This document shows, in pieces, positions 1 through 53,856 of a DNA stretch of 64,000 bases. Below the pieces are notes generated by a model that saw only the letters and a program-made list of their open reading frames with translations, made no database searches and was not told the origin of the DNA. The stretch is from the NCBI GenBank assembly GCA_021788015.1, contig JAJYLD010000004.1:3580-67579 (forward strand), written 5' to 3'. Position 1 is the first letter of the stretch. Every line of letters begins with the position of its first letter. This DNA is from a bacterium (lineage in GTDB: Bacteria > Patescibacteriota > Patescibacteriia > Patescibacteriales > JAKAJF01). A program made the translations under genes and the position numbers.

Positions 1-141
1 AGAAACTGTGAATTAAATAAAATTTGGTTCACGATTCCTGGTTCTAAAAATCAGGAGAGGACTTTGACAATTGAAAATCAGCTAAACAAAATAAAAGGCA
101 ATTTTATATTAACGAGCACACTTTTGAAAACAAAAGTGTGG

Positions 142-3485
<3,344 letters not shown>

Positions 3486-3790: not shown

Positions 3791-3883
3791 TGGTGCTTTT
3801 TGATTGGAAAAAATAGAAAAAATTATTTATAATTTATTTATAAAATGTAATTTGCACGTTGCAAGAGAAAGGAGGACCCGTTA

Positions 3884-4021
3884 GTGATAAAAATACTTAA
3901 AAAAGTGGACTCAGTCTTATGCGCGGCGGATCCCGTGCTCCGGCCTATAGCCATAGGCTTATTCGTCTTGTGGGCAGTTGTGCTACCCATATTGGCTTCT
4001 GTTATTCATAGCCGTCCTTAA
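3884..4021 (+). CDS. small hydrophobic protein, 45 aa (GTG start; below the ORF-track cutoff)
   Basis: SD 'aaaggagga' sits 6 nt upstream of GTG. Translation VIKILKKVDSVLCAADPVLRPIAIGLFVLWAVVLPILASVIHSRP. Followed by hairpin 'ccgtcc..ggaacgg' plus T-run. Confidence 0.35.
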   Translation: MIKILKKVDSVLCAADPVLRPIAIGLFVLWAVVLPILASVIHSRP

Positions 4022-15489: not shown

Positions 15490-15627
15490 AGAGAATTTTA
15501 TTTTTATGTTTCTATTATACAATAAAAAGAACATGAGAAGCAAATAGATTTTGGGATAATTGGGATTATTGTGATTTTTGAGATCATTGGGATTTTTTTC
15601 ATGTATCCCAACTCTCAAAAACAGGTG

Positions 15628-15700
15628 TGCTCGCAGATGGATTTGAACCGTCGACCCCCGCTTTATAAGAGCGGTGCTCTAACCGCTGAGCTATGCGAGC
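15628..15700 (-). tRNA. tRNA-Ile (anticodon UAU)
   Basis: Cloverleaf read by hand: GCTCGCA/TGCGAGC acceptor, GCTC-AGCGGTTA-GAGC D arm, CCGCT-CTTATAA-AGCGG anticodon arm, GACGG-TTCAAAT-CCATC T arm (one mismatch). No encoded CCA. Confidence 0.8.
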
Positions 15701-15726
15701 ATAAACATTTTAAATTTTGGAAACTT

Positions 15727-15813
15727 GGCTCATCGACCCAGCCGGTATAAACCGGCTTGCTCTAACCGACTGAGCTACCGGTGTATGCAGAACATATGGG
15801 AACTTTATGAGCC
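15727..15813 (-). other. aberrant tRNA-like element (canonical D arm, 6-bp stem with 6-nt 'TTTATA' loop, no T arm)
   Basis: Minus strand reads GGCTCAT-29 nt-TA GCTC AGTCGGTTA GAGC AA GCCGG TTTATA CCGGC TGGGTCG ATGAGCC. The 7-bp terminal helix is GGCTCAT/ATGAGCC. No 'GGTTCRANYCC' T arm. Confidence 0.35.
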
Positions 15814-15839: not shown

Positions 15840-16394
15840 TTAAAGTTTGTTTATTTTATTAAACACCTCGCTATAATTCACCTTACGAAAATCTGTTGTA
15901 TCCACTTTAATTACCGGTCCCCCTACATCTAATGGCTTTGAGTATTTATCAAAAACCTCATCGAATTTATTAAAGTGCTTATTGTCTATATGTCCAGGGT
16001 GTCGTTTTCCTTTCTTCCATCTATTTTCAAATCGCTTTTTTAAAATATCAAACTCGCAATTAAAGTTTACCTGAATTAATGAATGGCCGTACTTTACTCC
16101 CAATTTTTTTAATTGGAGGTTAAATTCTTGGCCAAAATTTGACTCCATAATAAAGTTAAATCCGGTTGAAGCTAATCTTTCTGCAAAATCTAGTAATATT
16201 TTATTGCTCGCTACACTCAATTTTTTGCTCCACGCTATACTATTTTTCCACCCGACTGTTTCAAATAAATTTTCTTTAATGACATCTTTATTTAAAAAAG
16301 GCATTTTAAATTTTTCAGTCAATAACAAACCAAAAGTAGTTTTACCTGTGCATGGCGCACCGGTTATAATTATTATACTTTTCTTTTTCTTCAT
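15840..16394 (-). CDS. P-loop NTPase / small-molecule-kinase-like ATP-binding protein
   Basis: Walker A 'ITGAPCTGKTTFG'. Start trimmed to 'MKKKKSIIII' (16394) because the upstream ORF-track codons are read through a tRNA-like fragment. Visibly more AT-rich than its neighbours. Confidence 0.7.
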   Translation of the reverse strand: MKKKKSIIIITGAPCTGKTTFGLLLTEKFKMPFLNKDVIKENLFETVGWKNSIAWSKKLSVASNKILLDFAERLASTGFNFIMESNFGQEFNLQLKKLGVKYGHSLIQVNFNCEFDILKKRFENRWKKGKRHPGHIDNKHFNKFDEVFDKYSKPLDVGGPVIKVDTTDFRKVNYSEVFNKINKL

Positions 16395-16399
16395 ATATG

Positions 16400-16432
16400 T
16401 GGGCGACAGAGGAGTCGAACCTCTGACCTTTA
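16400..16432 (-). pseudogene. 3' portion of a tRNA-like gene (T arm plus acceptor 3' strand)
   Basis: Minus strand reads 'AAGGTC AGAGG TTCGACT CCTCT GTCGCCC A'. GTCGCCC is complementary to GGGCGAC at 16750-16756. Confidence 0.5.
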
Positions 16433-16512
16433 CAATAAAAAATAAGAGCGCTCCCCACCCCGCTTCGCCTCGCTGCCTTTTTAAATTTATTCCGCCTTTT
16501 ATATTTTTGTTG

Positions 16513-16586
16513 TGGGTGTACACCGATTTGAACGGTGGACCTTTACGATGTCAACGTAACGCTCTAACCAACTGAGCTATACACCC
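16513..16586 (-). tRNA. tRNA-Val (anticodon GAC)
   Basis: GGGTGTA TA GCTC AGTTGGTTA GAGC G TTACG TTGACAT CGTAA AGGTC CACCG TTCAAAT CGGTG TACACCC A, a fully canonical cloverleaf. Confidence 0.9.
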
Positions 16587-16737
16587 AAGTATTTTCGTTC
16601 CACAAAGGCGAAGCAAGGCGGGCGGGTAACTTCACCCCGTCACTTCTATCCGCTTCCAAAAAAATCAATTAGAAATTTTTCTTGTTTCTCGTTTTGACCC
16701 GTTCTTTAATAATAAAGCAGAAAGAAGTGACGGGGGC

Positions 16738-16756
16738 AAAACTGAGCTAGTCGCCC
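16738..16756 (-). pseudogene. 5' portion of a tRNA-like gene (acceptor 5' strand plus D-stem 5' strand)
   Basis: Minus strand reads 'GGGCGAC TA GCTC AGTTT'. Matches the 3' fragment at 16400-16432. Confidence 0.5.
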
Positions 16757-16822
16757 GAAAATAAAATAAAGGAACAAAATTCCTTTATTTCACTTTAACA
16801 CCTTTTTTCGGTTTTTTCAAGG

Positions 16823-17968
16823 CTATAAAGAAATTTTTTTAAGTTTTTCTTCGATAGCGTTTACAACCCGTTTTTCCGCTTCCTGGATGGATTCATTAAG
16901 AGTAAACTGGGCTGTGTTTTTCGTTCCGCTCGGGTTGAATTCTTTCGTCAATTCAAGGGCGTCAAGGCCTTTGATGGCGTGAATCATCGCTTTCGTGACC
17001 GGTCCGCCGTTCAGGCCTTCGTAAAACAAGGCGATCACTTTGACTTGAGGCATGTTTATAATCAGTTCATCGACAATATCGTCAACGTTTGATTCATTCG
17101 TTCCGGTTTCGACGAAATCGTAATGCGTAATCCGGGACCAGACAAATTTTTGTTCGAATGAACTGGAAAGTCGCGAAAGGATTCTTCCCCAGAGTTTCAA
17201 CGTGTTCAAAGCTCGGGAACGATATAAATTGTTGTTTATTTCTTCCCGCCTCGCCCCCATGGAAATAAGTTGAGCGGCGACAGAAAGAGATTGGGGAGTG
17301 ATGTTCGGAGTTTTAAAGCTTCGCGTTTTTGAAATCATGCCGGTTAAAAGGCAGGTGGCGATATCTTCGTCCAGGGCGTCGGGAGAATAATCTTTAAGCA
17401 AAGAAAAAACAATTTCCGAAGTGGCCACGGCGGTCAGATTAATCAGATTTATTTGTCCGAATTCTTCGTTTCCGGAATGGTGATCTATGTTTACAATCGG
17501 CAGCTTGTAAAAAAGCTCCGTGTTTTCTTCATAAATTTTGCCGAGCGATTCCAAATCGGATGTGTCCAAAACGAAAATCAAATCGTATTTGTAATCATGA
17601 ATATTGGTGTTGATATCTTCTTGCGTAAATTTGCCGTCGCGAACCGTGATGATGAATTTTAACGTGTTCTCGTCGATGCGGTATTTGATTTGGTTGATTT
17701 TTCGATCGGCTATGTCCAAAGAAATGATGAATTTATGCAAATTGTCTATCGAATATTTGATTTCGTTATGCGCGGGCAGGAAGGAAAAAGCTTCGCCCTG
17801 TTTGAATTGTTCGGCGGCGATTTCGACTTTTTTTCCGAGTTTTTTTAAAAATAAATAGAGAGCCAAAGCGGAAGATACGGAATCGCCGTTCCATGTTTTC
17901 CGGAAAGTTATTAGAATATCTTGAGCTTTTTTGATTTGTTCAAAAAATTGCTGCTTTTGGTTGAGCAT
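16823..17968 (-). CDS. DHH-family phosphoesterase (NrnA-like, DHH plus DHHA1)
   Basis: 'NIDHHSGN', 'GDSVSSALALYLFL', C-terminal 'GGPVTKAM..' DHHA1-like region. Start trimmed to 'MLNQKQQ' (17968), because upstream codons cover a palindromic repeat. Confidence 0.7.
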   Translation of the reverse strand: MLNQKQQFFEQIKKAQDILITFRKTWNGDSVSSALALYLFLKKLGKKVEIAAEQFKQGEAFSFLPAHNEIKYSIDNLHKFIISLDIADRKINQIKYRIDENTLKFIITVRDGKFTQEDINTNIHDYKYDLIFVLDTSDLESLGKIYEENTELFYKLPIVNIDHHSGNEEFGQINLINLTAVATSEIVFSLLKDYSPDALDEDIATCLLTGMISKTRSFKTPNITPQSLSVAAQLISMGARREEINNNLYRSRALNTLKLWGRILSRLSSSFEQKFVWSRITHYDFVETGTNESNVDDIVDELIINMPQVKVIALFYEGLNGGPVTKAMIHAIKGLDALELTKEFNPSGTKNTAQFTLNESIQEAEKRVVNAIEEKLKKISL

Positions 17969-18159
17969 CTTTAATATGCGGGCCACCGCCGACTTCCGCC
18001 CCCGATCATGGTTCCGGCGACACCTTTTCATTAAAAATTCCCCTTTTAATTCAAAGGGGATTAACAGCAAGGGGCGATAAAACACTTTACCGTAAAAAAT
18101 TTACAATGTCAAGCAAGGAGAAAGTCATTAATTTTAGCCTTTTTTCTTAGGTTTTAAAC

Positions 18160-18188
18160 TTGTCATGCCGGCCCTTATGCATTATAAT
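18160..18188 (+). promoter_or_regulatory. sigma70-like promoter (TTGTCA-17-TATAAT)
   Basis: 'ttgtca' 18160-18165, 17-nt spacer, perfect 'tataat' 18183-18188. Confidence 0.55.
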
Positions 18189-18225
18189 TATACTAAATAT
18201 GAATCCTTTTTGAAATTTTATGGAT

Positions 18226-18345
18226 CCCGTTAGAAGTTGCGATCGCTTCAATGGGGAAATGCGGTTACAAAAAATTTTTTTATATATACATAACATATAT
18301 AGATTGCGCAATCAAAATTTTTGATCGCGATCTGCTTCTAACGGG
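18226..18345 (+). promoter_or_regulatory. structured 5' leader: 11-bp helix 'cccgttagaag'/'cttctaacggg' closing on the start codon
   Basis: Arms at 18226-18236 and 18335-18345. Inner 'gcgatcgc'/'gatcgcgatc' helix. The ATG at 18346 follows immediately and no SD is visible. Confidence 0.5.
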
Positions 18346-19685: not shown

Positions 19686-19995
19686 CCCGTTAGAAGCCCT
19701 GATGATAGGTAGGCGCGATCGCTTCAACGGAGACGTGAATATTTATTTTTAATGCAGATCGAAATTTTATTTGATCGCGATCCCGATACCACCAATTCTG
19801 TCGGAGTTGACTACGGGACAAGTATCATCGCAAAGAAATTATTATTAACTGCGTCTCGCCCCCGTAGTCACCGAGTTTACGAGGTGTACCCCGTTAGAAA
19901 TCTTTGGGATAAACCAAAGTAGAAATTTTTCAAGGACATATCAGTCCGGACGGAATTTCTAACGGGGCGTACTACCGGGGTCCGCTTCTAAGGGG
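19686..19995 (+). promoter_or_regulatory. structured 5' leader, expanded version of the 18226-18345 motif
   Basis: Outer arms 'cccgttagaag' (19686) and 'cttctaagggg' (19985) with one G-G mismatch. Shared 'gcgatcgcttcaayggrga' and 'ttgatcgcgatc'. Inner perfect 13-bp copy 'ccccgttagaaat' (19889) / 'atttctaacgggg' (19955). ATG at 19996. Confidence 0.45.
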
Positions 19996-33177: not shown

Positions 33178-34797
33178 TTAATGGTTTTTTTGGGCCCTTA
33201 GCTCATTTGGTAGAGTACCTGCTTTGCACGCAGGGGGTGAGGAGTTCGAGCCTCCTAGGGTCCACCATAAGATACTTTCAGAATTTTTTGAGCCAGACGG
33301 AAGGATTGCCTCGCGGCTTCGCCGCTCGGCTAAGCCGCTTTGCGCAAGGCGCAAAGCGGCAAAATCCCACGGCTCGCCAAACAAAACGGAAACGGATTTG
33401 TCCAAAAGCAAGGGGTTCGTTCCAATCTTTTGGACAAATGCCTTAATTTCTCCGAAACTCTCGCTCTGCGAGAGTTTTTCGGCTTTATTCGCGTCTAAAA
33501 TCCACGCCCGCAAGGGTTGGAGCCAATTCTTTCCCGTTCGTCCAAAATCCTCCAAATCGTTCGCAAGAGAAACTTTTTGCTTCAAAAGTTCCTCCTTTTT
33601 CGCCAAATAGTTTTCTTTGGGAATATCGCCGTCAATGTAGGCGGAAACTAACTTGTCCAGTTTCTCTTGCGTATCCGCTAATTTGGATTTCAGATTTTGG
33701 ACGAACGATTGCGATGAGCGGACATTTTCTTTTTGCCATTCATCTACTTGCCTCAACATTTTTCCTGTCCACTCATCGCAAATGGCAACGCTTTTGAGCC
33801 GTGCCTTAAGTTGCGCGACAAGATTGCTTTCTTGCACATACTTTTGCGAACATACACCTTTCTTTTTGGTGCAACGATAGTAGCGATATATGCCGCCGCA
33901 CTTGCCGCGCGAAAATTGCGCCGTGATCGCCGAGCCGCACTCTCCGCAAGAAAGTAATCCGGTAAATGGGAAGTCATGGCGTTGCTTGCTCTTGCGGGGT
34001 TTGGCACGGCGCAATAAGACATTCTGCACGGCTTCAAAAAGCGTTGCGGAAAGAATTGGCTCAAAGCGTCCTTCGTGATACTCGCCCTTGTGCTTCACCA
34101 AACCTAGATATGCTTGGTTGGTGAGCATTCGCGATATGGACGCTTTGGCAAGTGGCGTTCGGTGCCGCGTTTCCAAACCAAGTTCAGCCAAAAACTCCGC
34201 CATAGTTTCCAGCGTATGCGTCCCTTTGGCGTATTCCTCAAACGCGCGGACGATAACTTTGGATAATGTCGGGTGCGGCTCAATCGTACGCGTTTTCGGA
34301 TTATTCACATAGCCAAAGGGCGCTTTGGTCAGCCACTCTCCGCGGCGGAGTTTTTGGCGGATACCGCGATTGATATTTTCAACGAGGTTATCGCTGTAAT
34401 ACTTGGATTGACCGAACGCCACTTGCAACATAAACAACCCTTGCGGCGTGGGCTCAAACCAAAATGTCGGAAAGCGCAAAGAAACGATTTTTTGCGTGTC
34501 CACGAGATAAATGACTTTGCCGCCGTCCACCGAATTACGCGCCAACCTGTCGGGGTGCCACGCGAGTATGCCCACACCGTCCATTTTCTCAATTTCGTTC
34601 ATCATAGCGGCAAACATTTCTCGTCCGGGTTTCTTTGCGCTTTTCGCCTCTTGAAATTCTTGGATAATTTCAAGATTTTCTCTACGCGCATATTCGCGCA
34701 ATTCAAAGAGTTGAGCTTCAATACTCATAATTTGGTGGTCGTCATCTTCCGTTGATTTGCGAGCGTAGAGAAAATATTTTGGTTTGAGCATATTCAT
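33178..34797 (-). CDS. large serine recombinase (resolvase domain, recombinase domain, zinc ribbon)
   Basis: 'YARKSTEDDD' catalytic Ser, 'AWHPDRLARN', zinc ribbon 'CGECGSAITAQ...YYRCTKKKGVC', coiled-coil tail. The last ~70 codons run through IR-A and antisense tRNA-Ala, so the true C-terminus is uncertain. Confidence 0.85.
   Translation of the reverse strand: MNMLKPKYFLYARKSTEDDDHQIMSIEAQLFELREYARRENLEIIQEFQEAKSAKKPGREMFAAMMNEIEKMDGVGILAWHPDRLARNSVDGGKVIYLVDTQKIVSLRFPTFWFEPTPQGLFMLQVAFGQSKYYSDNLVENINRGIRQKLRRGEWLTKAPFGYVNNPKTRTIEPHPTLSKVIVRAFEEYAKGTHTLETMAEFLAELGLETRHRTPLAKASISRMLTNQAYLGLVKHKGEYHEGRFEPILSATLFEAVQNVLLRRAKPRKSKQRHDFPFTGLLSCGECGSAITAQFSRGKCGGIYRYYRCTKKKGVCSQKYVQESNLVAQLKARLKSVAICDEWTGKMLRQVDEWQKENVRSSQSFVQNLKSKLADTQEKLDKLVSAYIDGDIPKENYLAKKEELLKQKVSLANDLEDFGRTGKNWLQPLRAWILDANKAEKLSQSESFGEIKAFVQKIGTNPLLLDKSVSVLFGEPWDFAALRLAQSGLAERRSREAILPSGSKNSESILWWTLGGSNSSPPACKAGTLPNELRAQKNH
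33192..33267 (+). tRNA. tRNA-Ala (anticodon UGC), CCA encoded
   Basis: GGGCCCT TA GCTC ATTTGGTA GAGT A CCTGC TTTGCAC GCAGG GGGTG AGGAG TTCGAGC CTCCT AGGGTCC A CCA. G3-U70 alanine identity pair present. Confidence 0.9.
33262..33393 (+). repeat. IR-A, left copy (132 bp)
   Basis: Reverse complement of 34820-34951 with no mismatch seen by eye. Also visible as identical peptide 'IRYFQNFLSQTEGLPRGFAARLSRFAQGAKRQNPTARQTKRK' in ORFs 33207..33446 (+) and 34794..35183 (-). Confidence 0.9.
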
Positions 34798-34819
34798 ATT
34801 ATTTTAGACGCGAATAAAG

Positions 34820-34951
34820 GTTTCCGTTTTGTTTGGCGAGCCGTGGGATTTTGCCGCTTTGCGCCTTGCGCAAAGCGGCTTAGCCGAGCGGCGAAGCCGC
34901 GAGGCAATCCTTCCGTCTGGCTCAAAAAATTCTGAAAGTATCTTATGGTGG
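34820..34951 (-). repeat. IR-A, right (inverted) copy
   Basis: Reverse complement of 33262-33393. Lies immediately upstream of the recombinase start codon. Confidence 0.9.
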
Positions 34952-53528: not shown

Positions 53529-53556
53529 GCAGGCGTGGTGAAATTGGCATATTCAC
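53529..53556 (+). pseudogene. tRNA 5' fragment (acceptor strand plus D arm), tRNA-Leu-like
   Basis: 'GCAGGCG TG GTGA AATTGGCATA TTCAC' parallels 'GTCGGAG TG GTGA AATTGGCAGA CAC' of the tRNA-Leu 40 nt downstream. No anticodon or T arm follows. Confidence 0.5.
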
Positions 53557-53595
53557 CCCGTTATTCATTTGTATGTTACTATATCATGATTATAA

Positions 53596-53677
53596 GTCGG
53601 AGTGGTGAAATTGGCAGACACGCATGCCTTAGGAGCATGTGGGGCAACCCGTGAGAGTTCAAGTCTCTCCTCCGACA
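53596..53677 (+). tRNA. tRNA-Leu (anticodon UAG)
   Basis: GTCGGAG TG GTG AAATTGGCAGA CAC G CATGC CTTAGGA GCATG + variable arm + GAGAG TTCAAGT CTCTC CTCCGAC A. Confidence 0.9.
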
Positions 53678-53856
53678 CAAAAACAAAGAAATGAGTAACG
53701 AGGCAGGCGCATATCTTACCCTCCCGCCTTGCTTCGCAAGGCGAATCGGGGGGGGTATGCGGAGAAACCCTTATACTGTCTGTCGGCAAGCGGGAGTCTC
53801 GCCACCCGCATAAGGAGAAAATAAAAAATCGATTTTTGAAAATAAGGAGGAGGGTC

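Follow-up and report, generated by a model that had tools for sequence, protein, structure and literature searches.

Nested tRNA-Val(GAC) sequences between inverted repeats in a patescibacterial genome

The DNA considered here (the window) is a stretch of 64,000 nt from a patescibacterial contig, JAJYLD010000004.1. On its minus strand, between positions 16756 and 16400, the two ends of a tRNA gene stand on either side of an insert that contains a hairpin, a complete tRNA-Val(GAC) gene and a helix clamping that inner tRNA. An earlier note, made from the letters alone, had drawn attention to the arrangement and offered three readings: a tRNA gene destroyed by insertion, an intron-containing or split tRNA, and a novel tRNA-like RNA. 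To this description we add that the outer gene is itself a tRNA-Val(GAC), that the arrangement recurs in relatives (denoted below by L and a number), and that the hairpin and the clamp come from repeat families. The parts of the locus are as follows.

16756-16740, minus strand: outer 5′ piece, GGGCGACTAGCTCAGTT (GGGCGAC TA GCTC AGTT), tRNA positions 1-17, comprising the acceptor 5′ strand, U8 A9, the D-stem 5′ strand and the start of the D loop
16739-16437, minus strand: insert of 303 nt, a palindromic element followed by a GC-rich inverted repeat around tRNA-Val(GAC)
16635-16735, minus strand: hairpin 1, a palindromic element of 101 nt, AT-rich in its interior and without a tRNA; termini CCCCGTCA...TGACGGGG
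about 16606-16626, minus strand: left arm of clamp B, CCCGCCCGCCTTGCTTCGCC, from sequence, fold and inverted-repeat analysis
16586-16513, minus strand: inner intact tRNA-Val(GAC), called by ARAGORN and by Rfam (tRNA, 70.2 bits, E=2.8e-13)
about 16454-16470, minus strand: right arm of clamp B, GGCGAAGCGGGGTGGG, from the same three analyses
16437-16453, minus strand: GAGCGCTCTTATTTTTT, a T-rich filler in place of the outer anticodon arm, with a terminator-like call at 16461-16445 and a T tract
16436-16400, minus strand: outer 3′ piece, ATTGTAAAGGTCAGAGGTTCGACTCCTCTGTCGCCCA (AT TGTAA AGGTC AGAGG TTCGACT CCTCT GTCGCCC A), tRNA positions 37-73, comprising A37 U38, the anticodon-stem 3′ strand, the variable loop, the T arm, the acceptor 3′ strand and the discriminator A

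The outer halves and the insert

Read from the sequence, the outer acceptor strands pair at 7 of 7 positions, as the earlier note had it, and are accompanied by discriminator A73 and a canonical T arm (AGAGG/TTCGACT/CCTCT), which is identical to that of intact tRNA-Val genes. The kinship extends to both pieces. A tRNA-Val profile, built from the intact genes that carry the 25-mer of the outer T arm and acceptor, aligns the 3′ piece to model positions 38-75 (nhmmer, E=6e-8) and the 5′ piece to model positions 1-17. The 25-mer itself has matches in 17 genome contigs, mostly of Patescibacteria. In 15 of them an intact tRNA-Val(GAC) ends with it; in L009 it belongs to a displaced 3′ fragment, and in L001 the match runs into the end of the stored stretch. 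The 3′ piece is identical to the intact tRNA-Val gene of L004 over 38 of 38 nt, and the 5′ piece to positions 1-17 of the intact genes of both L003 and L004.

Positions 18-36 of the outer gene are gone, that is, most of the D loop, the 3′ D-stem strand, the 5′ strand of the anticodon stem and the anticodon, which agrees with the earlier remark that no canonical anticodon arm can be drawn. Of the two D-stem halves claimed at the time, the 5′ strand stands (it lies within model positions 1-17). The GAGC at 16453-16450, read as the 3′ strand, lies outside detectable tRNA homology and may be insert sequence. The whole of GAGCGCTCTTATTTTTT (16437-16453) gave no tRNA homology in the tRNA-Val profile search and looks like a terminator tail behind the GC-rich clamp. 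Rfam has a weak tRNA match at 16401-16469, whose 17 bits fall short of the gathering score of 29. Compared with a canonical tRNA, then, the outer molecule has the acceptor, the T arm and the discriminator, and lacks an uninterrupted cloverleaf in which a 5-bp stem and a 7-nt loop present an anticodon. Since positions 18-36 are lost, no intron model fits and the closest syntenic relative retrieved has an intact gene (see below), the outer molecule is very probably a non-decoding relic of the resident tRNA-Val(GAC) gene and not a split or intron-containing tRNA.

The separation of the halves, put at about 305 nt in the earlier note, measures 303 nt (16739-16437). Both structures that had been seen in the insert are real features of the sequence. 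The 13-bp hairpin is the perfect core of longer arms (16735-16715 and 16655-16635) that have 21 nt each and are 90% complementary. The long helix around the inner tRNA has 17-nt arms (16622-16606 and 16470-16454) that are 82% complementary; clamp B reads TTACCCGCCCGCCTTGCTTCGCC ... GCGAGGCGAAGCGGGGTGGGGA. The minimum-free-energy fold of the 358-nt RNA contains hairpin 1 as well as the clamp helix, with z = -7.8 against shuffles. The inner gene had been recognized as a canonical tRNA-Val(GAC) at 16513-16586, and it is the only one that ARAGORN and Rfam call at the locus. Its anticodon stem has undergone compensatory changes relative to L018 and L019, as expected of a working gene, and the gene is presumably functional. 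In an independent assembly, Logan contig L020 is 100% identical to the window over 16550-18337; the 5′ junction is therefore not an assembly artefact. A phage origin of either tRNA was rejected, as neither the outer nor the inner 3′ end had an exact match in viral contigs.

Searches for an intron or a split tRNA gave a consistent answer. The intron mode of ARAGORN (-i), which had been proposed as a check, found the outer tRNA neither in the window nor in related nests. The halves were also joined in 1,050 combinations of junctions, and in none of them did ARAGORN report a Val anticodon. The calls obtained were of low quality (Lys(UUU)-like, with a 4-base anticodon, or undetermined), their anticodon stems showing mismatches and 2-4 pairs of A/U or G-U type. 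The same joining procedure, applied as a positive control to the middle relic of L032, described below, produced a 75-nt tRNA-Val(GAC). Rfam at E<=10 over 16250-16900 returned no group I intron (Intron_gpI), tmRNA or other plausible family, and at the gathering score there was no group I intron in the window. ARAGORN did not find a tmRNA either, and the outer pair is G3-C70, not the G3-U70 of tmRNA type. An archaeal-type intron or split tRNA with a bulge-helix-bulge (BHB) motif was rejected: the exons are without positions 18-36, and the clamp is built from insert sequence alone. No anticodon-complementary segment was seen on reading the insert ends of L032. Nor was a splicing endonuclease or ligase seen among the scanned open reading frames of the 64-kb window, no test having been aimed at them. 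Intron mode, artificial joins and Rfam thus all speak against an intron-containing or split tRNA, and the idea of a novel tRNA-like RNA found no support.

Nests in relatives and the repeats at their ends

The flanking DHH phosphoesterase has about 1,900 homologues, under names such as Falkowbacteria and Parcubacteria, and the syntenic locus has the order GH1 - DHH - tRNAs - HSP20 - DUF3006 - VanW. The closest syntenic relative retrieved (L021/L022, 72% nucleotide identity over the DHH gene) has at this site an intact tRNA-Val of the outer type (GGGCGAT...AGAGGTTCGA...ATCGCCCA), and the 303-nt block is absent. This is the outcome that had been named in the earlier note as speaking against the exotic readings. 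It supports the simplest of the three, a tRNA gene destroyed by insertion: the halves derive from tRNA-Val(GAC), positions 18-36 are missing, and the site is intact in L021/L022. The inner type (GGGTGTA...), together with about 10 nt of trailer, is common to the more distant L018 and L019 (about 66% identity). Since the closest relative has the outer type intact and the inner type is shared with more distant ones, these sequences suggest that the outer gene is ancestral and the inner gene acquired. The DHH proteins of L028 and L030 are identical, and the two strains remain identical to about position 50 of tRNA-Val (3843-3917) and are diverged from the T arm on, which implies a recombination breakpoint inside the tRNA-Val gene.

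Nests recur at the DHH-to-HSP20 locus for two tRNA species: Val in Val in L018, Ile in Ile in L021, and a triple Val in L032. The L018 nest reads GGACATA TA GCTC AG, then ...TCCCGTA..., an intact tRNA-Val, ...TACGGGA, and finally TTGACAT CGTGG ... TATGTCC A. In L021/L022, the relic of a tRNA-Ile(UAU) (model positions 1-35 and 41-74) surrounds an intact tRNA-Ile(UAU), and a perfect 11-bp inverted repeat, CCCTGTTAAAT/ATTTAACAGGG, abuts both relic halves. This relic is the orthologue of the intact tRNA-Ile of the window. L032/L033 has three nested tRNA-Val(GAC) genes. In the outermost relic, A1 and C72 are mismatched and the T loop contains two small hairpins. The exons of the middle one are complete, with a G18A change, and its insert lies exactly at 37/38; precise removal of this insert yields a 75-nt tRNA-Val(GAC). 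The innermost gene is intact. L022 and L033, which are independent assemblies, reproduce the nests of L021 and L032, respectively.

The inner tRNA has the same anticodon and lies on the same strand as the relic in all nests (5/5), and inverted repeats bound every insert. In 57 distinct tRNA contexts, inverted repeats exceeding chance flanked nested tRNAs only. The clamps are therefore not ordinary leader-trailer stems of the tRNA genes of this lineage, an explanation that we reject. Simple local tandem duplication was likewise rejected for the window, L018, L021 and L032, where the acceptor and T stems differ strongly between the outer and inner copies. For the fragments of 100% identity in L035 and L008, such duplication is a fitting explanation.

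The ends of the inserts can be compared with repeats elsewhere in the window:

18226-18345, plus strand: A-type element resembling a miniature inverted-repeat transposable element (MITE), CCCGTTAGAAG...CTTCTAACGGG, without a tRNA; flanks ATGGAT/ATGGAA
19686 to ~19994, plus strand: A-type element with a second A-type copy nested inside (19890-19966)
about 53716-53755, plus strand: 'empty' B-type palindrome, arms fused directly, TTACCCTCCCGCCTTGCTTCGC followed at once by AAGGCGAATCGGGGGGGGTA; 40 nt downstream of tRNA-Leu(TAG)

A-type ends (CCCCGTTAGAA...TTCTAACGGGG) form a repeat family whose termini are conserved in at least six copies. Copies free of tRNA, 77-120 nt long, are intergenic in the window, in L043 (2309-2418) and in L046 (4344-4430). 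A-type copies are flanked by 5-6-bp direct repeats, with 5/6 matches in L043, in L046 and at 18226 and 19890 of the window. At a non-tRNA site in L043, TTGAC is present on both sides of the A-type copy. The outermost nest of L032 has A-type ends with GTTGAC on both sides, the sequence of positions 31-36 in the anticodon stem-loop of tRNA-Val(GAC). The A-type repeat is a genuine MITE-like element with the hallmarks of a transposon. Its ends may be IS1380-like ('CC' ends, 4-5-bp duplications). The Ile clamp of L021 has one difference from the A-type consensus in the first eight nt. For the L018 clamp and hairpin 1 of the window, the part in common with the A-type is only the terminal CCC(C)GT.A / T.AC(G)GGG.

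The B-type is represented by clamp B, whose left arm is 18/20 identical to 53719-53738 in the empty palindrome. The middle clamp of L032, ACCTGCCCGCC/GGCAGGCGGGT, is similar to clamp B. No target duplication was found at B-type junctions, either those of Val in the window or that in L032. The surroundings of the empty palindrome (53531-53760, plus strand, around tRNA-Leu(TAG) at 53596-53678) have an order of their own: a tRNA-Leu 5′ fragment (GCAGGCGTGGTGAAATTGGCA), an A-like left terminus (CCCCGTTATTC), the intact tRNA-Leu, the palindrome, and AATCGGGGGGGG, a possible right terminus. A 3′ relic was not found in this region, which on this reading of the sequence is possibly a third, partly decayed nest in the window.

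Partial copies are also common at the loci, with 5′ fragments of the same tRNA upstream and 3′ fragments downstream of intact genes. In L035-L039 (e.g., L035 3690-3875, tRNA strand minus), positions of about 20-75 of tRNA-Val have been copied downstream of the intact gene and its terminator. The copied tRNA segments match the working gene at 100% identity, but GC-rich hairpins (TCCGCC...GGCGGA type) break into them at the positions of the anticodon loop, the variable loop and the T loop, and in L037 the unit is present as a tandem duplication. Other relics have similar hairpins in the D loop (L021) or the T loop (L028, L030, L032). Upstream of tRNA-Val, tandem units of ~120 nt are found in L008 (4870-5087) and L009 (5790-6040), and also in L005 (4255-4315). 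Each unit has the first 13 nt of the tRNA (GGGCGGCTAGCTC) and then a CCCGCC...GGCGGGCAGGCAG hairpin. The displaced 3′ fragment of L009 starts at the anticodon loop and is att-like.

Origin of the nest and its surroundings

We favor the account, with a probability of roughly 0.65, that the resident tRNA-Val(GAC) gene of a Falkowbacteria-like patescibacterium was overwritten by an insert-borne tRNA-Val(GAC). Palindrome-bounded DNA of 303 nt would have replaced positions 18-36 of the resident gene. The insert combines an empty hairpin element with a clamp B that has, at its center, a complete promoter-less tRNA-Val(GAC) with short leader and trailer. The uniform orientation of inner tRNAs suggests that the tRNA moves as a promoter-less passenger between the inverted repeats. 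Once in place, the new gene would rely on the resident tRNA promoter for its transcription, within a precursor of the order relic-clamp-tRNA-clamp-relic. With regard to such use, it was noted that upstream of the relic there is a promoter-like site, followed by a terminator-like hairpin of the DHH gene. The inner tRNA would be released by RNase P and 3′ processing, and the relic halves and clamps would be by-products. A hit on a needed and apparently single-copy tRNA gene would survive only if the insert carries a tRNA of the same anticodon in the same orientation, and repeated hits on the current working copy could build up nests in the manner of Russian dolls: because the loop of tRNA-Val(GAC) contains the A-type target, each new working copy would again be targetable.

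We suggest only tentatively that dedicated tRNA-carrying cassettes generate the nests. It is possible, if somewhat doubtful, that Patescibacteria harbor an undescribed class of such cassettes, tiny, promoter-less and palindrome-bounded, which enter the cognate tRNA gene, seize its promoter and become indispensable by replacing it. As part of this proposal, at least the A-type would insert via the target GTTGAC, the anticodon loop of tRNA-Val(GAC) itself. Alternatively, a foreign tRNA fragment may have been captured at the center of a palindrome that had already broken the gene. We infer that the tRNA is cargo of the elements rather than such a later capture, and the enzyme, the transcription and the processing enter the account on the same footing.

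Several observations weigh against overwriting by elements of this kind. The inner tRNA of the window, together with its leader and trailer, is found again in L018, where the arms are A-like instead of B-type; clamp and cargo thus do not form a fixed unit. The termini of hairpin 1 resemble those of the A-type, and what they share with that family is the terminal 7-8 nt only. No transposase for A-type or B-type ends was found in the window, where the sole recombinase is the large serine recombinase at 33178-34797. Target duplication is absent at the junctions of the window's own tRNA-Val insert, and none of the relatives retrieved is >90% identical and free of the insert. Finally, there are zero substitutions in the retained outer parts, and the pairing of the outer acceptor and T stems is perfect in several nests; this fits very recent events and would also fit selection on the outer structure.

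The nest might also be a recombination scar that required no dedicated cassette. tRNA genes would then be crossover points for foreign DNA, by homologous or homology-facilitated illegitimate recombination or by recombination of integrase type, and the nest would be the leftover of integration and deletion, the palindromes having inserted independently. This would accommodate L028 and L030, which encode the same DHH protein and diverge past about position 50 of tRNA-Val, the common 3′ fragments downstream and 5′ fragments upstream of intact tRNAs, the att-like, displaced 3′ fragment of L009, which starts at the anticodon loop, the phylogenetic incongruence of the inner tRNA, and the large serine recombinase that adjoins a tRNA-Ala. 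It leaves unexplained, however, the inverted repeats that abut both junctions in every nest, and in nests only, as well as the membership of the ends in repeat families with tRNA-free copies and target duplications. Moreover, integration by an integrase yields a hybrid tRNA and one displaced fragment, whereas here an intact gene stands between fragments of both ends. An integrase att-site relic was rejected for the window for the like reason that 5′ and 3′ relics both surround a complete foreign tRNA, with merely 303 nt between them. On balance, a scar of this sort is unlikely. A chimera of two strains with different tRNA-Val alleles, produced in assembly, can be virtually discounted. The region is indeed hard to assemble, contigs of relatives often breaking inside or next to these tRNAs (L031, L047, L048), but L020 reproduces the 5′ junction, hairpin 1, the left arm of clamp B and the start of the inner tRNA at 100% identity. 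The insert sequence is, in addition, unique, and comparable nests came out of independent assemblies (L021/L022 and L032/L033).

That the retained outer parts are perfectly preserved is the main remaining argument for a role at the RNA level. The outer halves might constitute an intron-containing or two-piece tRNA-like molecule, held by the clamp after RNase P and RNase Z have excised the inner tRNA, and then be ligated or used as a tRNA-like RNA (compare Nanoarchaeum). A bolder variant of the cassette proposal would have the clamp-held halves, left by processing of the inner tRNA, used as a two-piece tRNA-like RNA. In favor of such a role, the acceptor, the T arm and a possible D stem are without flaw, the clamps lie directly against the exon ends, outer stems vary between genomes yet remain paired, and a PSTK/KTI12-like kinase gene abuts the relic. 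The middle insert of L032 even lies at 37/38, the canonical intron site of archaea and eukaryotes, where its removal restores tRNA-Val(GAC). Yet the outer molecule of the window is without positions 18-36 and the anticodon, its best spliced products having a 2-4-bp A/U stem and no Val anticodon, and the outermost relics of L018, L021 and L032 cannot be rebuilt either. Relics have inactivating changes (G18A, the A1-C72 mismatch, hairpins inside the T loop), with a working outer tRNA, an inner one of the same anticodon would serve no purpose, the gene is uninterrupted in the closest relative retrieved, and the kinase match is far below family cut-offs. Bacteria are not known to have machinery that would splice such an insert. 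A functional outer RNA is thus highly improbable, and overwriting of the resident gene remains the account that we prefer.

Two features lie between the relic and the intact tRNA-Ile (15627-15700):

15840-16394, minus strand: gene for a P-loop kinase of 184 amino acids (Pfam AAA_18, AAA_33, KTI12), starting 6 nt past the discriminator base of the relic
15724-15780, minus strand: 5′ part of another tRNA-Ile(UAU)-like gene (matching positions 5-53 of the Ile model, nhmmer E=4e-7)

The kinase has weak similarity to PSTK (L-seryl-tRNA(Sec) kinase), far below the cut-off, and its closest solved structure is PDB 2rhm, a 'putative kinase'. The gene has no DNA match in any syntenic relative and is a lineage-specific insertion between the Val and Ile genes. 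A role as an RNA-repair or splicing enzyme was rejected: the similarity to PSTK and KTI12 is weak, far below cut-offs, and the gene is missing in relatives. What is present of the Ile-like gene, just upstream of the intact tRNA-Ile, is a D arm and an anticodon stem of 6 bp that closes a TTTATA loop; the T arm is missing. In L047 (3229-3287), a similarly odd Ile-like gene with compensatory stem changes comes directly after the DHH gene, and the contig ends there.

After the DHH stop codon there is a conserved arrangement, seen at 16764-16820 (minus strand) of the window, at about 3085-3145 of L018, and upstream of tRNA-Ile in L023 and L046. It consists of a promoter-like site (TTGAAA/TTGATT, 17 nt, TAAAGT/TATAAT/TAAGTT), a terminator-like hairpin with a T run, and the first tRNA or relic. 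The promoter-like site would fire into the terminator-like hairpin.

Farther away, the large serine recombinase gene (33178-34797, minus strand) encodes Resolvase, Recombinase and Zn-ribbon domains and is XisF/Ccr-like. Its 3′ end overlaps tRNA-Ala(TGC) (33192-33267), and a palindrome of 27 nt, GCCGCTTTGCGC(AAG/CTT)GCGCAAAGCGGC, brackets it with two copies, at 33334-33360 and 34853-34879. The region 33178-34879 is likely an element integrated at tRNA-Ala. The 23S rRNA match (141-3479) spans 3,339 nt against a model of 2,925 nt, which implies about 400 nt in one or more insertions; no group I intron reached the Rfam gathering score in this region.

Significance and comparison with known systems

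By itself, the locus amounts to a tRNA gene that has been broken and contains a spare copy. For annotation, it is a reminder that tRNA finders and split-tRNA searches can be misled by relic halves whose acceptor and T arms are perfect; ARAGORN returns false Lys-like tRNAs when the outer halves are joined. For minimal genomes, it means that an apparently single-copy tRNA gene has seemingly been overwritten repeatedly by foreign copies of the same anticodon. If true, this would be a route of horizontal tRNA replacement as well as an 'addictive' strategy for a selfish element. Neither nested tRNA genes of the same anticodon nor horizontal overwriting by such genes was found described in the searchable literature.

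Several known systems have features in common with the nests. Partial tRNA duplications left by integrative elements at tRNA att sites were reportedly described by Williams in 2002. The nests are like relics of such elements in that tRNA genes are insertion hot spots and displaced 3′ fragments lie downstream of the working gene (L009, L028, L035). tRNA genes as att sites, with sublocations in the anticodon loop and the T loop, go back to Reiter et al. (1989), as related in PMC3218864. Whereas integrases rebuild a hybrid tRNA and displace one fragment, here a complete foreign tRNA lies between 5′ and 3′ relics, bounded by inverted repeats, in an insert of 100-300 nt. Integrase att relics thus account for the displaced 3′ fragments of L028 and of L009, where the expected arrangement is seen, and not for a complete foreign tRNA between two relic halves.

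Group I introns of patescibacterial tRNAs interrupt the anticodon loop at 35/36 and are missed by standard tRNA finders; they restore a working tRNA and have a ribozyme core (PMC13011429). The phylum and the insertion in tRNA genes are the same as here. Unlike those introns, the inserts described here have no group I match, their exons are incomplete, and a whole tRNA is within the insert.

The split, permuted and multi-intron tRNAs of archaea (Nanoarchaeum, Caldivirga, Desulfurococcales) have complete halves and are spliced at the BHB by the archaeal endonuclease, and mobile elements hitting tRNA genes have been proposed as their origin (PMC3218864). The nests share with them a GC-rich helix next to the break, and breaks at or near 37/38. 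They differ in being bacterial, in having truncated exons and in the presence of a same-anticodon replacement gene. The nests, one of them with an insertion precisely at 37/38, are a bacterial counterpart to the origin from mobile elements that has been proposed for split and intron-containing tRNAs of archaea, and make that idea testable in metagenomic populations.

Palindromic repeats invade genes elsewhere, as do the Rickettsia palindromic elements, REP/BIME and the GC clusters of yeast mitochondria, and are usually tolerated within the host gene product. The likeness here lies in GC-rich hairpins in an AT-rich genome, inside structured RNA genes (the D-, variable- and T-loop hairpins in relics of L021, L032 and L035). 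The difference is that here the hairpins accompany inactivation and replacement.

The closest known kind is a MITE or a mobile insertion cassette (MIC) with a passenger gene. MITEs and MICs are non-autonomous and bounded by inverted repeats, and some have passenger genes, e.g., the IS231-derived MICs of Bacillus cereus. Like them, the elements here are small (77-300 nt), encode no transposase and have conserved terminal inverted repeats, several copies per genome, nesting, short target duplications (A-type) and a variable interior. Unlike them, the B-type has no target duplication, and a partner transposase was not found in the window. What is new against this kind is that the passenger is a tRNA with the anticodon of the interrupted gene, that the target lies inside that cognate tRNA gene, and that palindrome-bounded replacement by the same anticodon forms a pattern across a lineage.

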